From: an uncultured Clostridium sp.
Lineage (GTDB): Bacteria > Bacillota_I > Bacilli_A > RF39 > UBA660
Length of the DNA stretch: 64,000 nucleotides
Direction of reading: 5' to 3'
Assembly (NCBI GenBank): GCA_947427095.1
Contig: CANEGO010000002.1
Location: 27,888 to 91,887, forward strand
Of the stretch, positions 4,209 through 61,705 are shown piece after piece. Within the stretch, counting starts at the first letter, position 1. The number at the start of each line of letters is the position of its first letter. Both the position numbers and the translations under genes were made by a program. The notes below the pieces were generated by a model. It did not search any database. It saw only the letters and a list, made by a program, of their open reading frames with translations, and was not told the origin of the DNA.

Positions 4209-4235
4209 CAAAAAAATAGGAACTAAATTCCTATT
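4209..4235 (-). terminator. rho-independent terminator of the surface-protein gene
   Basis: Minus strand: AATAGGAA, TTTAG loop, TTCCTATT, then TTTTTTG. Overlaps the stop codon. Confidence 0.6.
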
Positions 4236-5529
4236 TAACAGTAACCCTTGCTTTATCCGTTTTTCCGTTTGTCGATTTAACCGTGATTATTGCAGTTCCA
4301 CGGGTTCTTGCATAAACTACACCATTATTTACTGTTGCAACCGATGGGTTGTCACTACTCCAAGAAATAGTCTTATCAGTTGCGTTAGTTGGGGTATAAT
4401 AAACCGTTAAGGTTTTACTTTGGCCAGGTGTCATATCAAGTGTATTAGGAGACAATTTTACACCACTCAAAGCAATCAAAGATTGTTTAACGATTATCGT
4501 TCTACTAGTACTTGCTTTGTTTCCATAATTGTCGGTAACCTGGTAAGTAACATAATAAGTTCCAGGATTACTAATATTTAAATTGGATGAAACTCTAACC
4601 GATGAAGTTATATTTCCACCTAAAGAATCAGTTGCAGAATAACCGGGGTCATTATACATTTCTCCTACGTTAATAATAATTGTTTTACTACCATATAAAG
4701 TTATTGTTGGAGGGGTTGTTGGTCTTCTTGTGGTTGCCTTGGTTGTCACTTTAGAAGTTGATTTTTTTGTAGTTTGTCTAGTAGTAGTAATAGGCTCACT
4801 TGTTGTTGGAGTGGGTATAACTTTAACAGTTCTTTTAACATCTGCTTTATTACCAGCCTTATCAGTTACTGAATATGTAATTACGTAACTCCCTACTTTT
4901 TTTGTATCAACACTTCCACTTTTTACAATTTTAGACGTTATATCTCCATCAATGTTATCAGTTGCTTTTGCACCTTGATCCTCAAAATTAGCCCCTTGAT
5001 TAATAGATATTTCACTTTCACCCACAAGTGTAATTGTCGGTAAAACAGTATCTTTAACAGTAGTTGTCGTTGTTTTATTATTTTCCTTATCATTACTAAT
5101 ATATCCGGTTGTGGTATACATGTTTCCACATTTTATATACGATGAATACTTTTCACTTTCCTGTTTTGAAGCAATAACGTAACCATTACACACCTTGGCC
5201 GCTTTTACCTTGGCAGAATCGATAAATCCTCCATTTTCTATTAACAATTCTTTTAAATCTATTCTTATTTCTTTATCTGTTAATATTATACTCTTTTGTG
5301 ATATATAGGTTGGTGCCTCCTCTATCATCCTAGCCTCTAACTTATTAAAATCAGCACTAGTATATTCTTCTTTTTTTCCAGAAGTAGTTACCTTTACAAT
5401 TATAATAATTATAGTAATTAAAATAACTAATGCTAACACTGCTAAAATAACCATTCCACGAGTTATTTGAAACTTTTTTTTATCCTTGGTTTCATATTCA
5501 ACGTCAGTAGAATAATTTGTCTCGCTCAT
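4231..5529 (-). CDS. membrane-anchored surface protein, 2x DUF5011 Ig-like plus Big_2 domain
   Basis: N-terminal TM helix. Two repeats of P(T)ITL.G...I..G....D.G..ATD...G(D/N)ITS......G.Y.(I/V)TY.VTD..GNKA...R(T)..V. C-terminal Big_2-like segment. Thr/Pro-rich linkers. Confidence 0.7.
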   Translation of the reverse strand: MSETNYSTDVEYETKDKKKFQITRGMVILAVLALVILITIIIIIVKVTTSGKKEEYTSADFNKLEARMIEEAPTYISQKSIILTDKEIRIDLKELLIENGGFIDSAKVKAAKVCNGYVIASKQESEKYSSYIKCGNMYTTTGYISNDKENNKTTTTTVKDTVLPTITLVGESEISINQGANFEDQGAKATDNIDGDITSKIVKSGSVDTKKVGSYVITYSVTDKAGNKADVKRTVKVIPTPTTSEPITTTRQTTKKSTSKVTTKATTRRPTTPPTITLYGSKTIIINVGEMYNDPGYSATDSLGGNITSSVRVSSNLNISNPGTYYVTYQVTDNYGNKASTSRTIIVKQSLIALSGVKLSPNTLDMTPGQSKTLTVYYTPTNATDKTISWSSDNPSVATVNNGVVYARTRGTAIITVKSTNGKTDKARVTVK

Positions 5530-5633
5530 TAATATCACCACCATTTATTTTTCAAAAATATTATAACATGAATATTAAAAAAATACTAACATTTATATTA
5601 GCATTTTATATAGTTAAATCAAAGTAAAGTTTT

Positions 5634-8492: not shown

Positions 8493-9062
8493 ATGAACGT
8501 AATTCCAAGTGTTATTGAAAAAACTAAAGGGGTTGAAAGAGCATATGACATATACTCAAGATTATTAAAAGATCGGATAATATTTATAAGTGGAGAAATC
8601 GACGATGATTTAGCAAATAGTGTAATTGGGCAATTATTATTTTTAGATTCCCAATCACATGAAGATATAAATATATACATAAATAGTCCAGGTGGAAGTA
8701 TTACCGCTGGAATGGCAATATATGATACAATGAACTTTATAAAAAGTGACGTTTCAACGATATGTGTTGGCATGGCTGCATCCATGGCATCAGTTTTACT
8801 TGCAAGTGGGAAAAAGGAAAAAAGATTCATTTTACCTAATAGTGAAGTAATGATTCACCAACCTCTTGGAGGGGTAAGCGGGCAAGCTACTGAAATAAAA
8901 ATAGTAGCAGATCGAATTTTATATTTAAGAAACAAGTTAAATAAAATCTTATCAGAAAAAACAGGACAAGATATAAAAATAATAGAAAAAGATACCGAAA
9001 GAGACCATTATTTATCAGCTGAAGAAGCTTTAGAATATGGTTTGGTTGATAAAATATTATAA
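8493..9062 (+). CDS. clpP: ATP-dependent Clp protease proteolytic subunit
   Basis: [25 protein letters not shown] (Ser), MIHQP (His). Full-length ClpP similarity. Confidence 0.95.
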
Positions 9063-9096
9063 AAAAAACTCTATATATCACGATAGAGTTCTTTTT
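9061..9096. terminator. bidirectional terminator between convergent clpP and lipoprotein gene
   Basis: AACTCTAT, 8-nt loop, ATAGAGTT. Flanked by A8 on the 5' side and CTTTTT on the 3' side. Confidence 0.6.
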
Positions 9097-9097
9097 A

Positions 9098-9550
9098 TTA
9101 ATTCAAGGTTTTTGATTGATTAGAAATCCTTTGTTCAATTTCTATTATATCTGCATCAGTAAATTCATCTTTCTGAGCTTTTTTTAATTCATCAGCAGTT
9201 AAATAAGGTGTAATTGATTCTATTTTTGTATCAGGATCTAATGTTTTTATATCTGTGTATTTGCAAATTTCGGTGCCTTCATAATTCTCATTTTCGACAT
9301 GGTAAATTTCACCGGAAACTATATCTTTATAATGTTTACCATTGCAATTATCATAACGTGGATAATAATAACTCATTACCAAAGGTTGGTCATCAACATA
9401 TACCACTGCCGTCCTTTCTAGAATTGTATCTTCTAACAAAGCTTCCTTTTTCCCACATCCAGTAAATACCGTTGCTATCAACGTTCCTGCTACTAGTACT
9501 GCAACACCCTTCTTAACTAATTTTTTCTTTAATTCATTATCTTTTTTCAT
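9098..9550 (-). CDS. lipoprotein, unknown function
   Basis: Signal peptide with lipobox VFTGC. Strong GGGGG SD. Confidence 0.7.
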   Translation of the reverse strand: MKKDNELKKKLVKKGVAVLVAGTLIATVFTGCGKKEALLEDTILERTAVVYVDDQPLVMSYYYPRYDNCNGKHYKDIVSGEIYHVENENYEGTEICKYTDIKTLDPDTKIESITPYLTADELKKAQKDEFTDADIIEIEQRISNQSKTLN

Positions 9551-9585
9551 TCAAATATTCCCCCTTCTTCATTTGAATGTGCATT

Positions 9586-9616
9586 ATTATAACACGACCC
9601 CCCCCCCACTTGTCAA
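9586..9616 (-). promoter_or_regulatory. sigmaA-type promoter with a G10 tract in the spacer
   Basis: Minus strand: TTGACA, agt, G10, tcgTGt, TATAAT. Perfect -35, extended perfect -10, 19-nt spacer. Confidence 0.6.
9598..9607 (-). repeat. homopolymeric G10 (C10 on plus strand)
   Basis: By eye, the only G/C run longer than 5 in the whole window. Confidence 0.9.
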
Positions 9617-9682
9617 TACTTTTTTGTGGAAAACTAGAAAAAAATAAAAAGCATCTTTGCAGACACTTTTTACTCTTAAAAA

Positions 9683-10213
9683 TCATAACTTTTTCTTATC
9701 AATGAAGGTTTTCATGCAGTCCATTATAAATAATATTAAAAGTGAAATTGTAAGCCATCCAGGAATCTTCTTTATTATTCCTTTTAAAAGAGGATGAATT
9801 ATATAAATGAAAATCACACTTGCAATTCCCCAAGTAATCGTCATTTCTAAAGAAATATATTTTCCTATATGGTATTTATGACTATTATAATTCCAAAAAG
9901 TAAGACCAAACATTTTTTCAATTAATACTCCGCCTAATGCCTCTATTGTTGAAAGCACTATCGCAACCACAAAGAAAACTATCACCGTTTCATAAACACG
10001 GTTCATATGGAGATTTTTAAATAAATATTCTGAAACAAATAAAATAGTAACCGCACCTATTCCATATACTGGTGTCCAAAAACCGTTTAAAATACCACTT
10101 TTAAAGTTCGTATGAGTTAAAAAAGCTACCAACGTTTCTAAAATATGGCCTAACACAGAATATACAAAAAAACAATTTAAATAATACATAATATCACCAA
10201 TCATAGTATGCAT
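9683..10213 (-). CDS. PF06541-type (CmpB-like) membrane protein
   Basis: MYYLNCFFVYSVLGHILE start is typical of this family. About 5 TM helices. The true start may be the internal MYYLN. Confidence 0.55.
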   Translation of the reverse strand: MHTMIGDIMYYLNCFFVYSVLGHILETLVAFLTHTNFKSGILNGFWTPVYGIGAVTILFVSEYLFKNLHMNRVYETVIVFFVVAIVLSTIEALGGVLIEKMFGLTFWNYNSHKYHIGKYISLEMTITWGIASVIFIYIIHPLLKGIIKKIPGWLTISLLILFIMDCMKTFIDKKKL

Positions 10214-14027: not shown

Positions 14028-14049
14028 AAAAAAGACCTTAAGGTCTTTT
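14028..14049 (-). terminator. rho-independent terminator
   Basis: Minus strand: AAAAGACC TTAA GGTCTTTT then TTG. Overlaps the stop of the upstream membrane-protein gene. Confidence 0.6.
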
Positions 14050-15739
14050 AAACTAACACATATATAACGATGGATGTTATTATGATAATAACAAATAATA
14101 TAAGTAGTAATTTCCAAATAAACTTAAACCATTTATTATAAGGAATATCCAAATAATATAATCCTATTATTAAGCCTACTGAAGTAGGTGCAATAATCAT
14201 TATTAAATTATAAACGCTTTGCATAATAAATGCAACAACACCATAATAATCTTGGTTAGCTATAGTGGCACTAAATACCGTTCCAACAGTTGAAATAAGG
14301 TAATAGAAATCAGCTGTTAAAAAACTGCCTATCATCGTAGCTAAAGTAGCTGTTGCAACATTAAATCCATCTATCAATTTCAAAATCGCATTAGCTATTG
14401 TTACGTTTATACCAGTTGTTACCATTATTATTAAAACCACGCTTATAAGCATAGCTGTTAACGCTATTGGTAAAACTTTCTTTGTTGCTCCCGTAACGGT
14501 TGCAATAAAATCGTTAACCTTAGTCTTGTTTATAACACCAATAATAAGTGTAAGAATAAATAACAATATTGCAACATCATTCATTGTAAATGTTCCAAAA
14601 ACGCTAATCGTTCCGTTTGCTCCACCGGTTGTTTGATCAATTACCACAGGGACACCAATTATGTTTCCAAATATAGTATAATCACCTATTTTAATATTAT
14701 TTAACCAAACATTAACATCACTAAACAAAGAACAATTTTCTATTAATGATTCCCATGGAATTATAGAACCAATAATAAATAATGTGAATAATACTAAACT
14801 AGTACCAAATAAAACGTTATTTCGCCTTGAGCTAGTTACGGAAATCATACCATTCTTATCAGCTTTTTCTGTTAAAACAGTAATAAATTCTGCTATTGAT
14901 AAAATGGTTGGAATTCCAGTCCAACAAAATAGTATACTTAAAATTCCACTTCTTACTTTACCAGCATAGAATTTATTTATACCAATTGTTCCAAATAAGA
15001 TAGTTAAAACGGCATAAATTGTTTTATTTACTTTCTTTTCATTAGTTTTGACAACTACCTTTTTCTCTTTCTTTTCTTTTACCAATTCTTTAGTACTTTT
15101 CTTAACTGTCTTAGCTGTAGTCTTTTTAGCATTAGACTTGACACTACCGCTTTTAGGTGCGATTAAAATTATTAAAACACAGATAGAAACAACAAATAAA
15201 ATAACTTTAACTAATAATAAAGTATTTAATTCTAATCCAAATGTAGTAAATAAAGAATTATTATAAATTCCACACATAGAACCAATTAGTCCTGCTACCA
15301 AAGTAGAAGATAAAATTATTTTTTTATCTATTTCTAGTTCCTTCATAACCTGATAAACAAAAGGAGCAAATACTAATAAAATTAGAAAATCACTAACAAA
15401 AAGTGAAATAATTCCAAATATTATCGTAACAATAGAAACTAATAATCTTTCCTTTCCTTTAAAAATGCTTGCTGTTTTACTTACGAAGGCATTATAAACA
15501 GAAATCTTATTTAAAACGGCATAAAAACATGCCAAAGCAATTAAGAATACCGCAATCCCATTAAAATATGATATAGAAATGCTTAGGTTTGATAATAAGC
15601 CCCATATTCCAACCCCGGCAACACCAGTTGACGTAACAGAGCCTGTATAATCAACATATGAACCTGGAATAAGCAAAGTAAGTAACCAAGCTACAAATAC
15701 TGTTATTGCTAAAACCTTGAATAAATTATACTTTTTCAT
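14048..15739 (-). CDS. YfcC/DcuC-like polytopic membrane protein with internal Lys-rich linker and TM2 domain
   Basis: N-terminal LLIPGSY pattern resembles YfcC. Central KK-rich stretch followed by NKFYAGKVRSGILSILFCWTGIPTILSIAEFI (TM2). Start set at MKKYNLF, preceded by GGGAGG. Confidence 0.55.
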   Translation of the reverse strand: MKKYNLFKVLAITVFVAWLLTLLIPGSYVDYTGSVTSTGVAGVGIWGLLSNLSISISYFNGIAVFLIALACFYAVLNKISVYNAFVSKTASIFKGKERLLVSIVTIIFGIISLFVSDFLILLVFAPFVYQVMKELEIDKKIILSSTLVAGLIGSMCGIYNNSLFTTFGLELNTLLLVKVILFVVSICVLIILIAPKSGSVKSNAKKTTAKTVKKSTKELVKEKKEKKVVVKTNEKKVNKTIYAVLTILFGTIGINKFYAGKVRSGILSILFCWTGIPTILSIAEFITVLTEKADKNGMISVTSSRRNNVLFGTSLVLFTLFIIGSIIPWESLIENCSLFSDVNVWLNNIKIGDYTIFGNIIGVPVVIDQTTGGANGTISVFGTFTMNDVAILLFILTLIIGVINKTKVNDFIATVTGATKKVLPIALTAMLISVVLIIMVTTGINVTIANAILKLIDGFNVATATLATMIGSFLTADFYYLISTVGTVFSATIANQDYYGVVAFIMQSVYNLIMIIAPTSVGLIIGLYYLDIPYNKWFKFIWKLLLILFVIIIITSIVIYVLV

Positions 15740-15825
15740 TTTTCCTCCCAATAATATATTATTTCTTTTTTTGGCCAAAATTATGACAATACGCACCAGA
15801 TTCATAACTTTGTCCTACAATTAAA

Positions 15826-20713: not shown

Positions 20714-20739
20714 AAAAAAGAGCTATTTATGATAGCTCT
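20714..20739 (-). terminator. terminator overlapping the last codons of the 583-aa gene
   Basis: Minus strand: AGAGCTAT, cataa loop, ATAGCTCT, then TTTTT. The hairpin contains the TAG stop. Confidence 0.6.
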
Positions 20740-22474
20740 CTTCATTTATCCTGCTCATAAGATTTTCATATTGGTCATTAAATCTTGTTTTTATTCCATT
20801 TATGGGAATCTTACATTCATTTTCTGTTAAAACAGCGCTATCATCATTAGATACGTAATATGTGTGTTCTATCTGATTATCATTTGTTTTTTCATCACTA
20901 TAAATTACTTTGCATACACTAACAAACCCATTTTCTATTGCTTCCTGTATAGTATATACTTTTGAAGGTATATATTCCTTTGTATATTTATTATAATTCT
21001 CAATTTTAATAAGGCTATCAAAATGAATATAATATATTTCATCTTCGCTTCTTACTACTTTACCTCTTATATATTGATTATCATTATAATTTTCTACTAA
21101 TTCATATTCTTTACTATTTAATATCATATCATAAGTAGGATTTTCTACTTTGATATATTCTTTATAACCTATCTTTTTATCTATAATTCCACTTTTAGCG
21201 AGCATAGCAAGCATAATATTATTTGCCTCTTTAAGTTCTATAAATTCCACATCATTCATCTTGGGTGGTATTAAAAATTTTCTTGAATCAAAAACAGATG
21301 TTCTTATACCAAAATCATGACTAGTTACACAACTCATAATATCTTTATTTTCACTTATATCATGACCATACATATTTTTATATAATTTATATAATATTGT
21401 TTCTATTTCCTTGTGCACTTCCGCATCTTCACCAGATTCTAATCCAGAGGTAGCAAGACAATGCTTTAAAGTTAAAACATCTTTGGTTGAAAGATGAGTG
21501 TTTAAAATTTCATTTAATCTATTATCGTCACCACCAAATGATAATTCATATATAACCTCAGGCCCTACAATATTTATTAATAATTTTAAATTATTTACTA
21601 CACTGAAATACTTGTAAGATCCGTAACCAAGTAATTCACTTGACATAAGTTCTGCAACACCCTCGTTTAAATAATAATAGTTAGTTCCTTCTGCTTGAAG
21701 TAAGTGAATAAATTCATGCATAGAATCATGTGTTTTATATGGACTATCCGAATTACAGATATTAATAACATTAGGTTCAGAAGAATTATAATATCCATCA
21801 ATGCTATAATAATTTGGATTTTCAGAACCAAAGTATTCAATTCTTAAATTATCAAATTTCAAGCGTGCAGTATATTCTAATGCTGAACCTTTATAGTAGG
21901 AAAACACAAGTTTTAATAAATCCTCATTTGCTGCAACTTGTTTTAATTCATTTGGAAAATTACTAGAATTAATATAATCTATTGCATCTTTATAATCAAT
22001 AGGTTCATAATTCTTCATGCCAACAACATCTGATATGTTGTGTGATATATAAGCTGATAAATTTGTATTTACATTAAAATTTGTTTTTGCAATAAAAGTA
22101 AAACCAGTTAAAGTTAAAGATACCGTAAGCCCTGCAATCATAAACCTTTTAAAAAAGGAATCAAATTCATCTTCTTTCTTGTATAAGATAGCATCTTTTC
22201 CATTATACTTAAATAACATATCATAATCTTCTTTTCCACTTAATAAGAAATGTTTTAGTCCTGTTAAAGGATTATAATACACATCATATTCTCTAAACTT
22301 AGTTAAGTATTCACAATTATTACCAAGTTTAAATTTAGAAAAAATAGAATTGATATAATGTGTATTCGATTTAGAAAAACCATCTGCCGATACATGTAAA
22401 GAAACAAAAGTATTATCTTTTAAAAATAAATATTCATATGTTTTATCCAAGTTTTTTATAATTCCAACTAACAT
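20723..22474 (-). CDS. putative membrane-anchored gluzincin-type zinc metallopeptidase
   Basis: HEFIH followed by LNEGVAE (HExxH...NEGxAE). One TM helix (MIAGLTVSLTLTGFTFIA). No other similarity recognised. Confidence 0.5.
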   Translation of the reverse strand: MLVGIIKNLDKTYEYLFLKDNTFVSLHVSADGFSKSNTHYINSIFSKFKLGNNCEYLTKFREYDVYYNPLTGLKHFLLSGKEDYDMLFKYNGKDAILYKKEDEFDSFFKRFMIAGLTVSLTLTGFTFIAKTNFNVNTNLSAYISHNISDVVGMKNYEPIDYKDAIDYINSSNFPNELKQVAANEDLLKLVFSYYKGSALEYTARLKFDNLRIEYFGSENPNYYSIDGYYNSSEPNVINICNSDSPYKTHDSMHEFIHLLQAEGTNYYYLNEGVAELMSSELLGYGSYKYFSVVNNLKLLINIVGPEVIYELSFGGDDNRLNEILNTHLSTKDVLTLKHCLATSGLESGEDAEVHKEIETILYKLYKNMYGHDISENKDIMSCVTSHDFGIRTSVFDSRKFLIPPKMNDVEFIELKEANNIMLAMLAKSGIIDKKIGYKEYIKVENPTYDMILNSKEYELVENYNDNQYIRGKVVRSEDEIYYIHFDSLIKIENYNKYTKEYIPSKVYTIQEAIENGFVSVCKVIYSDEKTNDNQIEHTYYVSNDDSAVLTENECKIPINGIKTRFNDQYENLMSRINEESYHK

Positions 22475-30007: not shown

Positions 30008-31081
30008 TTATTTTAATATCATACTAACTACGGAAACTAAAATAATAGCTGCTATAACACCAGCAAAAATAACAAACCACAATATACTAATGAAAGCGGC
30101 TTCTTTTTTTCTCTTTTTTTGCCACGGAGCTTTTGGCGTTAAAGCTGATCCTTTTTCTTTTTCTATGTCATCAGCATCATCTTTTTGATAAAGTTCGTTT
30201 TGACTTATATTTTCTTCCAATTCTTCATCATAGTATTCACCATCATATCTATAACCTATCTCATTTAATGGTTTTAGAGTATATTTAACGGACGTAACAC
30301 CATTAACGTTTGTTTTTTTCTCGGATTTAAGTGTTTTAACCTCATCTTTTGAGGGATTATTTTCTTCAATCAATACAACTATATTTTCTTCCGGAGATAT
30401 ATAGACTTTTCTATTAAGAATTAAAAGAATTTCTTCTACAGGCTTTTTTAAAAGATCACTTTTATAATCATCTGGACCTTCTAAACTTGTAATTAGTGCT
30501 TTTATAGTACCATATACTTTTTCCTTTTCATCAAACGAAAGTTTTGCATACTCATTAGCTTTAGATACTTCTTTAATATCCCTCATTATAACCTCATGAC
30601 AATCCCTTGCTAAACTTTGCTCAAAAATAGAAGTTGCGTTAGTTATACCGTCTACGCTCATTATTTTTTGTGTACCTTGTAAGGATTCAAACCGTTCTTT
30701 GCCCGTTTTATAAGGATCACTCCGATTTTCTATTATTCTTACATTATCATATGGATAAGGATAATGAATTTTTATATAACTTTTACCGTCTTTTTCAAAA
30801 TCTGTAATATTTTCTAATGACAAAGCGTATTCTACTTTTTTATTAACATCAATAGAATTTGCATCATGCCCCGCTATTTTTTCATCTTTTTTCAATACTG
30901 ATTCTAAAAGTTTTCTATCAAACCTAAGCTTATTTATTTCATCATGGATGATTCTATATGCCCTAGGGTCCTTATTATACACTTCAAAAAGTTTATCTTT
31001 TTGTTCCTCATTTTTCACAACTCCATCATTAAGTAATCTTTGTAATGCTAAATTAAGAGATTTTTGCTCAAAATCCGTCAT
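30008..31081 (-). CDS. hypothetical tail-anchored membrane protein
   Basis: Charged soluble body and a single C-terminal TM helix (AAFISILWFVIFAGVIAAIILVSVV). Start set at MTDFEQ, preceded by GAGGTG. Confidence 0.5.
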   Translation of the reverse strand: MTDFEQKSLNLALQRLLNDGVVKNEEQKDKLFEVYNKDPRAYRIIHDEINKLRFDRKLLESVLKKDEKIAGHDANSIDVNKKVEYALSLENITDFEKDGKSYIKIHYPYPYDNVRIIENRSDPYKTGKERFESLQGTQKIMSVDGITNATSIFEQSLARDCHEVIMRDIKEVSKANEYAKLSFDEKEKVYGTIKALITSLEGPDDYKSDLLKKPVEEILLILNRKVYISPEENIVVLIEENNPSKDEVKTLKSEKKTNVNGVTSVKYTLKPLNEIGYRYDGEYYDEELEENISQNELYQKDDADDIEKEKGSALTPKAPWQKKRKKEAAFISILWFVIFAGVIAAIILVSVVSMILK

Positions 31082-31180
31082 AAATAAAATCACCTCTACT
31101 ATGATTATAACTTAAAAATTATAAATACATATATAAAATTAATTTGTAATGTAAACAAAAAAAAGATGTAATACATCTTT

Positions 31181-51084: not shown

Positions 51085-51552
51085 CTATTCTACTTTACAA
51101 GTAAATCCATCTTTTTCAGCAGATTTCTTGTTATCTTCTAAAGTACTGTTATCATCTTTTAAATCAGCAAAACCTTGAGCTTCTAATGCTTCTTCACTAG
51201 CATTTTCTACATCAATATCTAAAGTTACTTTATATTCGTAATTTTGATCATCCTTTGTTACCTTTAAACTAACACCATCTTTATCGGACTCTTTGTTTTG
51301 CTCATCCATAGATTCTGTAAACATAGACCAATTTTCCTTTACCTCATCATCAGTAATTTTAGTATTAACATCCATTGTCATATGATTTAATTTATCATTC
51401 TTAAATGTCATAGAAATTACTTGCTCTATATTCATACCTTCTTCATCTTGCGTACTTGTGCAAACTAATTTTCGCTCAGTTTCTTTAGTAGCACATCCCG
51501 TAACTAAGACAACACTAGCTAATCCTAAGAATATCATACCAAATTTTTTCAT
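51085..51552 (-). CDS. lipoprotein (YehR/DUF1307-like)
   Basis: Lipobox LVTGC. Acidic mature domain. Size and pattern resemble DUF1307. Confidence 0.6.
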   Translation of the reverse strand: MKKFGMIFLGLASVVLVTGCATKETERKLVCTSTQDEEGMNIEQVISMTFKNDKLNHMTMDVNTKITDDEVKENWSMFTESMDEQNKESDKDGVSLKVTKDDQNYEYKVTLDIDVENASEEALEAQGFADLKDDNSTLEDNKKSAEKDGFTCKVE

Positions 51553-58498: not shown

Positions 58499-61400
58499 TT
58501 AATAAGTAGCAATTAATTCTAATAATTCTTTTATTGGAGCATTTTCAACTTCGGATGGTATAATTGGGTCGTCATCTTTTTTTATTGCCATAGACTCAGC
58601 ATCTCCTTTTCCAATTTCATAAGCTTGTTTTATATTGACTTTACTCAATTTAATTTCATAATCAGTTAAAGGGTTAATTTGAGAATCATTACACTTTATT
58701 ATCGGAAGTATCGTGATTTTAGGCTTATTTCCATTTTTAATAATATTTTCTAAAACATTTATATTTCTGTCATTATCACAATTCATTTCATGTATACGTG
58801 TTGGCGTTTGTACAATATAATTTTCTTTGACATCTCTAGGAATTTTGGCTTTGCCCATTATCATTATTCTATAATCATAAATACGATTTTTATTTATTCC
58901 CTTTATGAATGACAAAATTATTTTCCCTTCTTTATCATCCCTTCCCACGATGTCAATTAAGTCTTGAAAAACTTTTTTAGCCCCACTTTCATTTTCAAAT
59001 AAGAATCCTATTTTAATAAAATCTTTATTTATTAAATCGCCTATGTACATAGTGCCCTTCCATTGAGCTATATCCCAATGGTTTGTTTTAATTAAACCAG
59101 AGGTAAAAATATTATCATGTGATACATTTTTAAATCTTTTCTTTTCATCTTTTTTATATTCTATTTTATCTTTATCTTCAAAAGGATCTACAAATTCTTC
59201 AGTAGAGTTTTCTATTTCAATACCTGAATACCATTCAACTTTTCTAGTAATTTTGTAATCAGAAGTATTCTTATTCTCTTCGTCAGAGCCAAAGATTTTA
59301 TTAAGATTATATATGGTGTTTGTATGATTTATACTTCTTTCAAAACTTTGATCATCAACCAAAAGTTTCTTAAGAGTTTCTTCATAGTCTTTGTATATAA
59401 AGCTTATAGCTAAAATATTTGCCAATAATTTGAATAAAAAATCTGATATAATTTTATGATTTTCTATATTAATATCATACATTTCTATTGTATCAATCAT
59501 AATGGTATAGGTATCTATACCATCAAAGGAATAATCGATGCTAAATTCACCTGTATTTCTTTCTTGAAGTTCAAGTATAATATCTCCTCGCATAAAAGTA
59601 CTATTAATATGCATAGTTGCTAGAGTATTTTCTAATAAAGCAATAATAAATTCAGAAAAGCGATGCCCTAATCTAGTTGCTTTAAATTTAACTACTATTT
59701 TATTACCATTTAACCAAGATTGAATTTTCTTATCTTTCCCATTTAAAAAAATTGGCTCAGGTAACCCTTGTAATAATGAATCCTTATAAAAACTCAATAT
59801 TATTTTATCAAATTCATTTTTATCTCCATTACATTCTTTTAGCATTTGCTCGTCATATTCACCAATTACGTATTTAGCCATAACTTCTGCAGTAATCAAA
59901 CCAGTTAGCCTGCAGTTGTCTATAATTATATTCATCATATTAAAATCTTCTACTTTAGTCGATAATAATGATGATGATATCAAAGCCTCTCTTTGTTGAA
60001 AATATTCATTTTCTTCATCTAAATTAATTTGTTCATTTTTTTCCAACAAAACACTTAATAATATATTTTTTATTTCAAACCACTTTATTGCTTGTTCTAC
60101 ATTTCCCTGCTGAATTTCTAAATCAATTACTACATTTACAACTTTAATTGAAAAGGCATCTATAGTATTATCTTTCAAAAAAATATCTAAGAATACGGAT
60201 ATTGCTGCAATATAATAGTTTTTTGCAGCATATTTTAATCCAATAGCTTCAAAATTGCCACCAATATTTAAATATGCTTCTACTAATTTACCATCTGATT
60301 CATCTTTATAAAGAAGAGTCAAACACTTTCCTAAAATATTAATTGCATCATAATGATTATTACTTGATGATAGCATTTTAGCTCTTTTTAAATACATATC
60401 TGCTTTTTGTAAATCTGCTTTTCTAGTCGTTAATTCCTCGGTTATTAAATCATATAAAGCAATAAAGTCATCATTGTCATTAAAAACAGGTAAAAGATTT
60501 TCTACCATTTTAGATAATGTTATAAAGTCATATTCTTTAAATGATTTAGCTTCTTCAACAATAGCAATTAATTCCTTAAATTGCTTATTAATATTCTCCT
60601 CTAGAAAAATATTTACAAAGCATAACTTTGTTTTAGCTTCTAATTGGGTAACTCTACTTTTTGAACTTTCTTTTTCCTTTAATAGTTTTAATAATACTTC
60701 AGTTTTTTCTTTAACTGCTTTTTTATCTCTTTGTTTTCTTGTGTACTCCAAAGTCCATAAAGTTGCTAACTTCAGAATTTCTTCTATCTTTTTATCTTTA
60801 CTTACTTCATCCTGATATTCCATATAGTACTTTTCGAAATTGGCCTCATCATTTAGCCACCAATGATAATACCATGCCAAATCATATAAAATATTTCTTT
60901 CATCAACAATATCATTTTTCTCTCTAGCCATCCTCAATGCTCGATTAAACTTCCCAACTACAGTTACTTCATCTTCTTCCAAATCTCTACTTAATATAGC
61001 GGACTCTATAGCCAAATCAATAACATCTTTATTTATTATTTCTTTTACTGAATAATCTTGAAGTTTCTTTTCTATATCAAATATTCTTCTTTGTTTTTTT
61101 AAATCATTTATACCTGTCTGTTTTTCTTTTATAGGAGTAGTAATACCTATAATAACTAATAAATCTAAATTCTTATTATCTAATGCTTTTTCTAATATCC
61201 AAGTTTTATCTAAAATTATTATATCTAATCCCGTTTCTTCTTTTTTAGCATCTTGGTATTCTAATCTTTTATCATTTTTTATTGCTTGATTTGTTACAAA
61301 GAAAATCTTAGTATAACCTCTTTTCGTATCTATAATTTTTTTAATATCCGAATTACATTTCGTTTTCCAAGTTTTCTTTAGGCTTATAGCAAATGCCCAT

Positions 61401-61705
61401 CTGTCGTTTGAGGTATTCAATCCATACCACCAAAATTTTTGAATCTTTTTTGAAACAGGAAAATTCTCTGTATCAACCTTTCCATCTCCTCCGCCTGCTG
61501 GTCCAGTCTCTTCTATTAAATTTGGACATATTTCTCTTTCTAGTAACTTTCTAATAAACTCTTCAAAATTGAAATGCATGTTCTGTTCAGATAATCTTGA
61601 TAGCTGAAAATCTAATATTTCTCTTGAACATTCCACTTTATCGATTTCCTTTGAATCAGAAAATTGATCTGGATGCAATCTTTTTAATAAATCTCTTGGT
61701 TCCAT
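58499..61705 (-). CDS. orphan 1068-aa protein: Mrr-cat-like PD-(D/E)xK nuclease N-domain plus large helical/TPR-like body
   Basis: AGGAGG SD. N-terminal FEEFIRKLLERE...GPAGGGDGKVD...AFAISLKK...IFFVTNQ...IIILD. No Walker A found anywhere. Confidence 0.6.
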   Translation of the reverse strand: MEPRDLLKRLHPDQFSDSKEIDKVECSREILDFQLSRLSEQNMHFNFEEFIRKLLEREICPNLIEETGPAGGGDGKVDTENFPVSKKIQKFWWYGLNTSNDRWAFAISLKKTWKTKCNSDIKKIIDTKRGYTKIFFVTNQAIKNDKRLEYQDAKKEETGLDIIILDKTWILEKALDNKNLDLLVIIGITTPIKEKQTGINDLKKQRRIFDIEKKLQDYSVKEIINKDVIDLAIESAILSRDLEEDEVTVVGKFNRALRMAREKNDIVDERNILYDLAWYYHWWLNDEANFEKYYMEYQDEVSKDKKIEEILKLATLWTLEYTRKQRDKKAVKEKTEVLLKLLKEKESSKSRVTQLEAKTKLCFVNIFLEENINKQFKELIAIVEEAKSFKEYDFITLSKMVENLLPVFNDNDDFIALYDLITEELTTRKADLQKADMYLKRAKMLSSSNNHYDAINILGKCLTLLYKDESDGKLVEAYLNIGGNFEAIGLKYAAKNYYIAAISVFLDIFLKDNTIDAFSIKVVNVVIDLEIQQGNVEQAIKWFEIKNILLSVLLEKNEQINLDEENEYFQQREALISSSLLSTKVEDFNMMNIIIDNCRLTGLITAEVMAKYVIGEYDEQMLKECNGDKNEFDKIILSFYKDSLLQGLPEPIFLNGKDKKIQSWLNGNKIVVKFKATRLGHRFSEFIIALLENTLATMHINSTFMRGDIILELQERNTGEFSIDYSFDGIDTYTIMIDTIEMYDINIENHKIISDFLFKLLANILAISFIYKDYEETLKKLLVDDQSFERSINHTNTIYNLNKIFGSDEENKNTSDYKITRKVEWYSGIEIENSTEEFVDPFEDKDKIEYKKDEKKRFKNVSHDNIFTSGLIKTNHWDIAQWKGTMYIGDLINKDFIKIGFLFENESGAKKVFQDLIDIVGRDDKEGKIILSFIKGINKNRIYDYRIMIMGKAKIPRDVKENYIVQTPTRIHEMNCDNDRNINVLENIIKNGNKPKITILPIIKCNDSQINPLTDYEIKLSKVNIKQAYEIGKGDAESMAIKKDDDPIIPSEVENAPIKELLELIATY

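Follow-up and report, generated by a model that had tools for sequence, protein, structure and literature searches.

Ten consecutive G residues lie between the -35 box and the -10 box of a predicted promoter in an uncultured member of the Bacilli, raising the question of whether the tract is a length-variable spacer that adjusts transcription of the lipoprotein gene behind it, a site that slips to no effect, a product of poly-G sequencing error, or a binding element. We addressed this question in a 64-kb stretch of DNA, called the window throughout, and in related contigs from public metagenome assemblies.

Promoter, leader RNA, and gene at the G tract

On the minus strand, positions 9616 to 9586 read TTGACA-AGT-G10-TCGTGT-TATAAT, with a 19-nt spacer. 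An earlier note on this DNA had described a perfect -35 hexamer, a perfect extended -10 element, and a spacer of 19 nt, and had called the G10 run the only long G/C homopolymer present. Each of these observations was borne out, as the run (C10 on the plus strand, 9598 to 9607) is the sole G or C run of six or more nucleotides in the 64 kb, at 29% G+C. By chance, only 0.002 (independent bases) to 0.007 (first-order Markov model) runs of at least 10 would be expected. The features of the locus are as follows:

9059 to 9098, no strand assigned: terminator hairpin where the lipoprotein gene and clpP converge, with U8 after a 16-bp stem, -15 kcal/mol, z = -5.6
9098 to 9550, minus strand: monocistronic lipoprotein gene, 150 amino acids, lipobox FTGC with Cys32
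9548 to 9579, minus strand: leader-RNA hairpin with a 10-bp stem (CAUUCAAAUG/UAUUUGAAUG), -6.7 kcal/mol, z = -3.9
9586 to 9591, minus strand: -10 hexamer TATAAT, perfect consensus
9592 to 9594, minus strand: TGn of the extended -10, with TG at 9594 to 9593 giving TGnTATAAT; TG kept in all lineages
9598 to 9607, minus strand: G10 homopolymer within the spacer, hypervariable
9611 to 9616, minus strand: -35 hexamer TTGACA, perfect consensus
9621 to 9633, minus strand: TTTTCCACAAAAA motif just 5' of the -35, one copy in the window, kept in all four poly-G lineages
9640 to 9677, minus strand: terminator-like hairpin 3' of cmpB with a U run after its 17-bp stem, centroid -15.8 kcal/mol
9683 to 10213: upstream gene for a CmpB-family membrane protein, PF06541 match

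When both strands of the window were searched for perfect TTGACA-N(12-23)-TATAAT pairs, only the G10 promoter was found. When up to one mismatch per pair was tolerated, a 17-nt spacer was the most frequent in the window (6 of 22). A consensus promoter scanner did not list the G10 promoter because it accepts spacers of 16 to 18 nt only. The predicted promoter thus holds the tract entirely inside its spacer (TTGACA-19 nt-TGnTATAAT), and ten residues place the tract above the length of about seven G or C residues taken for this class as long enough to slip. The TTTTCCACAAAAA motif may be a UP-like A-tract or an operator.

Terminator hairpins flank the lipoprotein gene on both sides, and it is therefore monocistronic and reliant on its own promoter. 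Read-through from cmpB was considered as another source of transcription and rejected, since the hairpin at 9640 to 9677 lies between the two genes. The neighboring genes are cmpB, cysS, clpC, and clpP, and none of those adjacent encodes a regulator. The N terminus of the lipoprotein, MKKDNELKKKLVKKGVAVLVAGTLIATVFTGC, has a basic start and a hydrophobic stretch followed by the lipobox FTG-C32, and this combination of signal peptide and lipobox predicts, from sequence, a surface location in the envelope. The mature domain is small and of beta-plus-helix form (AF2 mean pLDDT of 70). Foldseek comparison of the AF2 model with the PDB gave no match at an E value of 0.001 or below, searches of Pfam, NCBIfam, and PHROGs assigned the protein to no family, and no tandem repeats were found in 9098 to 9550. 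Among 5.8 billion protein clusters, a single-sequence search returned 7 relatives and a profile search 22. By these comparisons, the lipoprotein is an orphan of a very small family. The window encodes a second candidate lipoprotein (51085 to 51552, minus strand, beginning MKKFGMIFLGLASVVLVTGC), whose upstream region is AT-rich and unremarkable, lacking both a homopolymer tract and the motifs found around G10.

The leader-RNA hairpin begins roughly at the predicted transcription start, near 9579 to 9580, and none of 200 shuffled sequences folded as well. Its loop holds the GGGGG Shine-Dalgarno sequence (9560 to 9564) and its 3' arm the AUG (9548 to 9550). The arms are identical in lineages 1 to 3 and weaker in lineage 4 (lineages are described below). 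The hairpin could stabilize the 5' end of the mRNA or restrain translation. No Rfam model matched anywhere in the window at the gathering threshold.

The host is judged to be an uncultured, walled, low-GC Bacilli bacterium of the mouse gut. The wall is deduced from a FemX-like transferase and two M23 peptidoglycan peptidases encoded in the window, and on the same evidence we rejected a wall-less Mollicute as the host. The window also carries dnaB, uvrA, uvrB, whiA, and a monoglucosyl-diacylglycerol synthase gene, and the nearest named genome is the mouse-gut metagenome-assembled genome (MAG) "uncultured Bacilli bacterium MGBC118889." Over positions 1 to 64000, the plus strand contains 24659 T versus 20765 A and 11444 C versus 7132 G, and the minus strand holds 50 of the 58 listed open reading frames (ORFs) of at least 130 amino acids. 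This places the window on a single replichore, its genes co-oriented with replication. Five minus-strand ORFs had no NCBIfam match at an E value of 1e-10 or below: 58499 to 61705 (1068 amino acids), 14048 to 15805 (585), 20723 to 22474 (583), 4231 to 5544 (437), and 30008 to 31093 (361).

Tract length within and between lineages

We compared contigs that encode the exact relative proteins, together with their gene neighbors. All compared alleles are consensus sequences of short-read metagenome assemblies, in which poly-G is error-prone. The runs behind the contigs are SRR33448110, SRR10090025, SRR10090038, SRR35232895, SRR34289307, SRR34718509, SRR10445544, SRR15970524, and SRR33448121, and further read sets are the ERR31996xx runs, ERZ4239745, and ERZ13657770. 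A scan of GTDB genomes found one locus, in the MGBC118889 MAG, where the contig begins inside the leader RNA. Pattern scans for more alleles in JGI metagenome contigs and in IMG/VR each gave 0 matches.

Within the species of the window (lineage 1), tract lengths of G5, G5, G7, G9, G10, G12, and G13 were found, with spacers of 13 to 21 nt:

Window and L010: G10 followed by T; spacer 19 nt
L002: G9; spacer 17 nt, the predicted optimum
L001: G12 followed by A; spacer 21 nt
L012: G13; spacer 21 nt
L025: G7; spacer 14 nt, the remainder of the spacer being the variant TATATGC
L031: G5; spacer 13 nt
L049: G5; spacer 13 nt; 1-nt frameshift in the gene
L003: at least G11; contig ends in the tract
L005: contig likewise breaks off inside the tract

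The window, L001, L010, L012, and L025 differ at only a few positions downstream of the tract (1 to 7 of approximately 500 nt, or 1 to 4 when counted over 520 nt), and the G5 alleles belong to more diverged members of the same species. The earlier note had proposed 17 nt as the optimum that loss of G residues would restore, and such an allele does exist in a public assembly (L002). It had also held that invariance across strains would speak against a variable promoter. When this was examined, lengths differed between contigs with identical or near-identical flanks. In one of the G5 contigs, L049, positions 1303 to 1754 carry an interrupted tract (A-G5-TG), and loss of 1 nt puts the lipoprotein gene out of frame (109 amino acids). 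This looks like a decaying copy or possibly an assembly error.

In lineage 2, whose lipoprotein is 68% identical to that of the window, the six contigs that encode an identical 148-amino-acid protein show 0 mismatches over 520 nt downstream and no indels there, and yet their tracts are G7, G9, G9, G10, G10, and G11, with spacers of 16 to 20 nt. These contigs were drawn from NCBI MAGs, ENA SPAdes assemblies, and Logan. In an ungapped comparison of the same 520 nt, no other homopolymer changes length, including the A7 at the start codon. Linked single-nucleotide polymorphisms (SNPs) separate lineage 2 into two haplotypes, ...GAGCTTGACA...Gn-AA versus ...GTGCTTGACA...Gn-A (GAG...AA versus GTG...A), and tract length varies inside each of them, which argues against random read error. 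Thus, polymorphic tracts with conserved flanks occur both in lineage 2 (G7 to G11) and in lineage 1 (G5 to G13).

Since every comparison sequence comes from a short-read metagenome assembly, we considered whether the length differences are technical, with sequencing or assembly errors in poly-G obscuring a tract that is fixed within each strain. Many contigs do terminate at the tract, some alleles carry odd bases (T, A, or AA) after it, and the consensus in lineage 4 is almost constant, all of which would suit such an explanation. Against it, the differences amount to as much as 4 nt within lineage 2 and 8 nt within lineage 1, they lie in contig interiors from three independent pipelines, all other homopolymers in the 520-nt flank are invariant, tract variants are linked to SNP haplotypes, and the G10T allele recurs in two records, the window and L010. 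A purely technical origin of the differences therefore appears quite improbable to us.

The contig breaks themselves deserve a cautious reading. Twelve contigs from k = 31 graphs end in the tract or no more than 30 nt from it:

Contigs breaking at the tract: L001, L002, L003, L005, L018, L019, L022, L025, L031, L033, L034, and L048

Two more contigs, including that of the GTDB representative MAG, begin approximately 50 nt downstream. We left L015 to L017, which end 75 to 94 nt upstream of the tract, out of this count; the ends of L016 and L017 are probably due to an IS30-like (HTH_38) insertion, as in L014. The breaks are no more than suggestive of reads within one sample disagreeing on tract length, as a drop in coverage or poly-G errors would match them too. 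The extreme alleles in L001, L025, and L031 sit in the first k-mer of their contigs, where assembly errors concentrate. The near-constant consensus of lineage 4, with G9 in 8 of 9 contigs, can mean that length is stable across samples or that the samples share one strain.

Beyond these two lineages, a single lineage 3 contig (L023) has G8 and a spacer of 16 nt, and lineage 4 carries the same arrangement in front of an unrelated lipoprotein. The position of the tract between the -35 and the -10 is therefore kept in at least four lineages whose lipoproteins are 68% identical or unrelated. The commonest spacer is 19 nt, found in the window, L010, L016, L021, and eight lineage 4 contigs. More distant orthologues, 31 to 41% identical and adjoining a FemAB gene, have TTGACA and TAGAAT separated by 17 nt without a G tract. 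The spacer is exactly 17 nt in all four of these contigs although its sequence differs, which serves as an internal control: the length is constrained in this promoter family unless poly-G is present. The TTGACA hexamer is identical in every lineage compared, these orthologues included.

These comparisons bear on a second alternative, that the tract is a neutral hotspot that slips without selection because the perfect extended -10 drives transcription whatever the spacing to the -35. Extended -10 promoters of the Firmicutes can function without a -35, TGnTATAAT is perfect here, spacers range over 13 to 21 nt, 19 rather than 17 being the mode, and decayed alleles exist (G5, the interrupted tract, and the frameshifted gene of L049). 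However, neutral tracts of G7 to G13 should decay fast by point mutation at 29% G+C, and this one persists in four lineages, at an unchanged place in the promoter, and before two unrelated genes. An invariant TTGACA is hard to explain if the -35 never acts, and the 17 nt held exactly by the tract-less orthologues indicate that spacing matters in such promoters. We consequently view neutrality as unlikely.

An invertible promoter was also considered and rejected, as the inverted repeats flanking the locus are only AT-rich sequences of 14 to 36 nt that are 73 to 93% complementary, and the alternative junctions seen after cmpB (L004, L006 to L009, and L011) are absent from both strands of the window and represent strain differences. 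The interval between cmpB and clpP is strain-variable in its own right. The contigs with alternative junctions diverge just past the cmpB stop codon into sequence absent from the window, and in L026 (2070 to 2554) another terminator and another gene, of 153 amino acids, come after clpP in place of the lipoprotein. In some lineage 2 strains, an HTH_38 gene (IS30-like transposase N terminus), truncated by the contig end in L014 (1 to 732, minus strand), replaces cmpB just upstream of the tract promoter.

A proposed spacing switch and its known counterparts

We consider it likely that the G10 run is a hypermutable tract in the spacer of a sigma-A-type promoter, which would make this a contingency promoter of the porA, tp0126, or vlp type. 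The proposal of the earlier note that the tract renders the promoter phase-variable thus gains support as a candidate from the length polymorphism between strains and from a tract position kept in at least four lineages. In the mechanism we propose, slipped-strand mispairing at replication would add or remove G residues, and each gain or loss would shift the distance between the perfect -35 and the perfect extended -10. A spacer near 17 nt would give full promoter strength, and the 19-nt spacer of the window would permit either low transcription through the extended -10 alone or none. The outcome would be heritable, reversible cell-to-cell variation in one membrane-anchored surface protein. 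Under this model, transcription would start at the predicted site and depend on tract length, switching would be reversible and frequent within a population, and the selective agent might be, for example, IgA or phage.

The 19-nt allele of the window is probably a low state and plausibly OFF, the latter label being uncertain because 19 nt is the commonest spacer in several lineages. That mode would be odd if 19 nt were simply OFF, and a perfect extended -10 may relax the need for a defined distance to the -35; both points count against a switch. Because the extended -10 is perfect, residual transcription is expected even with the -35 out of register, and strict ON/OFF switching and a graded "volume control" of the porA kind are equally likely.

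In porA of Neisseria meningitidis, a poly-G tract of approximately 9 to 11 residues between the -35 and -10 sets expression, with 11 G giving high, 10 G approximately 2-fold lower, and 9 G approximately 13-fold lower levels (PMC3639595). The locus studied here likewise places poly-G between the -35 and -10 of a predicted surface protein gene. The hosts and products differ, porA encoding an outer-membrane porin in a Gram-negative pathogen and the gene in the window an orphan lipoprotein with a perfect extended -10 in a walled Bacilli gut commensal. Furthermore, the effect of the porA tract was measured by expression, whereas the tract in the window is known from sequence alone.

Treponema pallidum provides a comparison for both position and length. 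The tp0126 gene has poly-G between its -35 and -10, and its transcription is optimal at a 17-nt spacer; the tprL tract ranges from 7 to 11 G within isolates, with G8 ON and G10 near background (PMC7864442). Our locus shares with tp0126 a poly-G in the promoter spacer, and the 7 to 11 G of tprL correspond to the range seen here. In contrast, the treponemal host is a spirochaete, and its tpr tracts are positioned immediately upstream of where transcription starts and not in a canonical spacer. In addition, tpr variation was measured within isolates by fragment analysis, whereas the variation described here is between assemblies.

Closer relatives of the host supply examples with other repeats, namely, the poly-A tract of Mycoplasma hyorhinis vlp and the TA repeat of M. 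mycoides Vmm, both in the promoter spacer (PMC10502178). As at our locus, these are lipoprotein genes of Bacilli/Mollicutes relatives with a simple repeat in the promoter spacer, and the conserved 5' cassette (promoter, leader, and, in one case, signal peptide) found before genes with different mature domains may parallel the arrangement in vlp. Unlike in vlp and Vmm, the repeat here is G rather than A or TA, the host has peptidoglycan genes, and the protein shows no sequence similarity to Vlp. Moreover, the clustered multigene family and the tandem-repeat region in the protein that characterize vlp are absent from the window and from its lipoprotein, respectively.

In N. meningitidis opc, too, a surface protein gene (a predicted one in our case) has a G/C homopolymer in its promoter, and in opc the tract controls the level of transcription. 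The opc poly-C is described as overlapping the -35 region and probably acting through a regulator (PMC7864442). Here, by contrast, the -35 is intact and the tract lies strictly within the spacer. The opc case raises a third alternative, in which our G tract is a protein-binding or DNA-structure element, either an operator together with TTTTCCACAAAAA and CACATTCAAA or an opc-like site acting through a regulator. The conserved motifs on either side of the core promoter in all four lineages fit this idea, as does the suggestion that the opc tract acts through a regulator and not through spacing. However, no regulator gene is adjacent (cmpB, cysS, clpC, and clpP are the neighbors), and a binding site would be expected to have a fixed length. 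We assign a binding role very little probability, and it would be compatible with the spacing model rather than an exclusive alternative to it.

A promoter arrangement shared with other lipoprotein genes

At the DNA level, conservation in all tract-bearing lineages extends from TTTTCCACA through the -35, the G tract, and TGnTATAAT to CACATTCAAA(T/C)GAAGA(A)GGGGG. This cassette occurs once in the 64-kb window. In lineage 4, it is also found in front of P0014, an unrelated lipoprotein family, at another locus that is flanked by a reverse-transcriptase (RVT_1) gene and a Mur ligase gene and where the tract is G9 in eight contigs and G10 in one, giving spacers of 19 and 20 nt. A further protein, P0007, is chimeric. 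Over the -10, the leader RNA, and the signal peptide it matches positions 9596 to 9455 of the window at 94% identity, and its mature domain is of the P0014 family; an MTS methyltransferase gene comes next. One P0007 contig begins exactly where the G tract ends.

P0014 and P0007 sites: L039 to L048 (gene at L039:1501-1896), L033:48-452, and L034:28-432

Because P0007 is chimeric and the cassette precedes P0014 at another locus, we tentatively raise a broader, more doubtful possibility, that the poly-G promoter is a portable cassette of approximately 100 nt, placed before several unrelated lipoprotein genes and exchanged by recombination in a walled mouse-gut Bacilli clade. As proposed, the cassette would comprise the TTTTCCACAAAAA motif, the -35, and the G tract, followed by the extended -10 and the leader hairpin with CACATTCAAA..GGGGG. 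If this were true, vlp-like multigene combinatorial surface variation would exist outside the wall-less Mollicutes, perhaps under selection by IgA or phage.

Repeat-driven phase variation is known mostly from pathogens such as Neisseria, Haemophilus, Campylobacter, Treponema, and Mycoplasma, and in gut commensals attention has so far gone to invertible promoters and methylation. To our knowledge, a repeat-driven promoter switch has not been described before in this uncultured group of gut Bacilli. The length polymorphism at this locus is visible straight from public metagenome assemblies, and the tract fragments the assemblies of the window's species at the G10 site. In practical terms, such loci can be found as G/C homopolymers at contig breaks in AT-rich MAGs. 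These findings suggest that in walled commensals of the Firmicutes type, too, the cell surface is shaped by contingency promoters.
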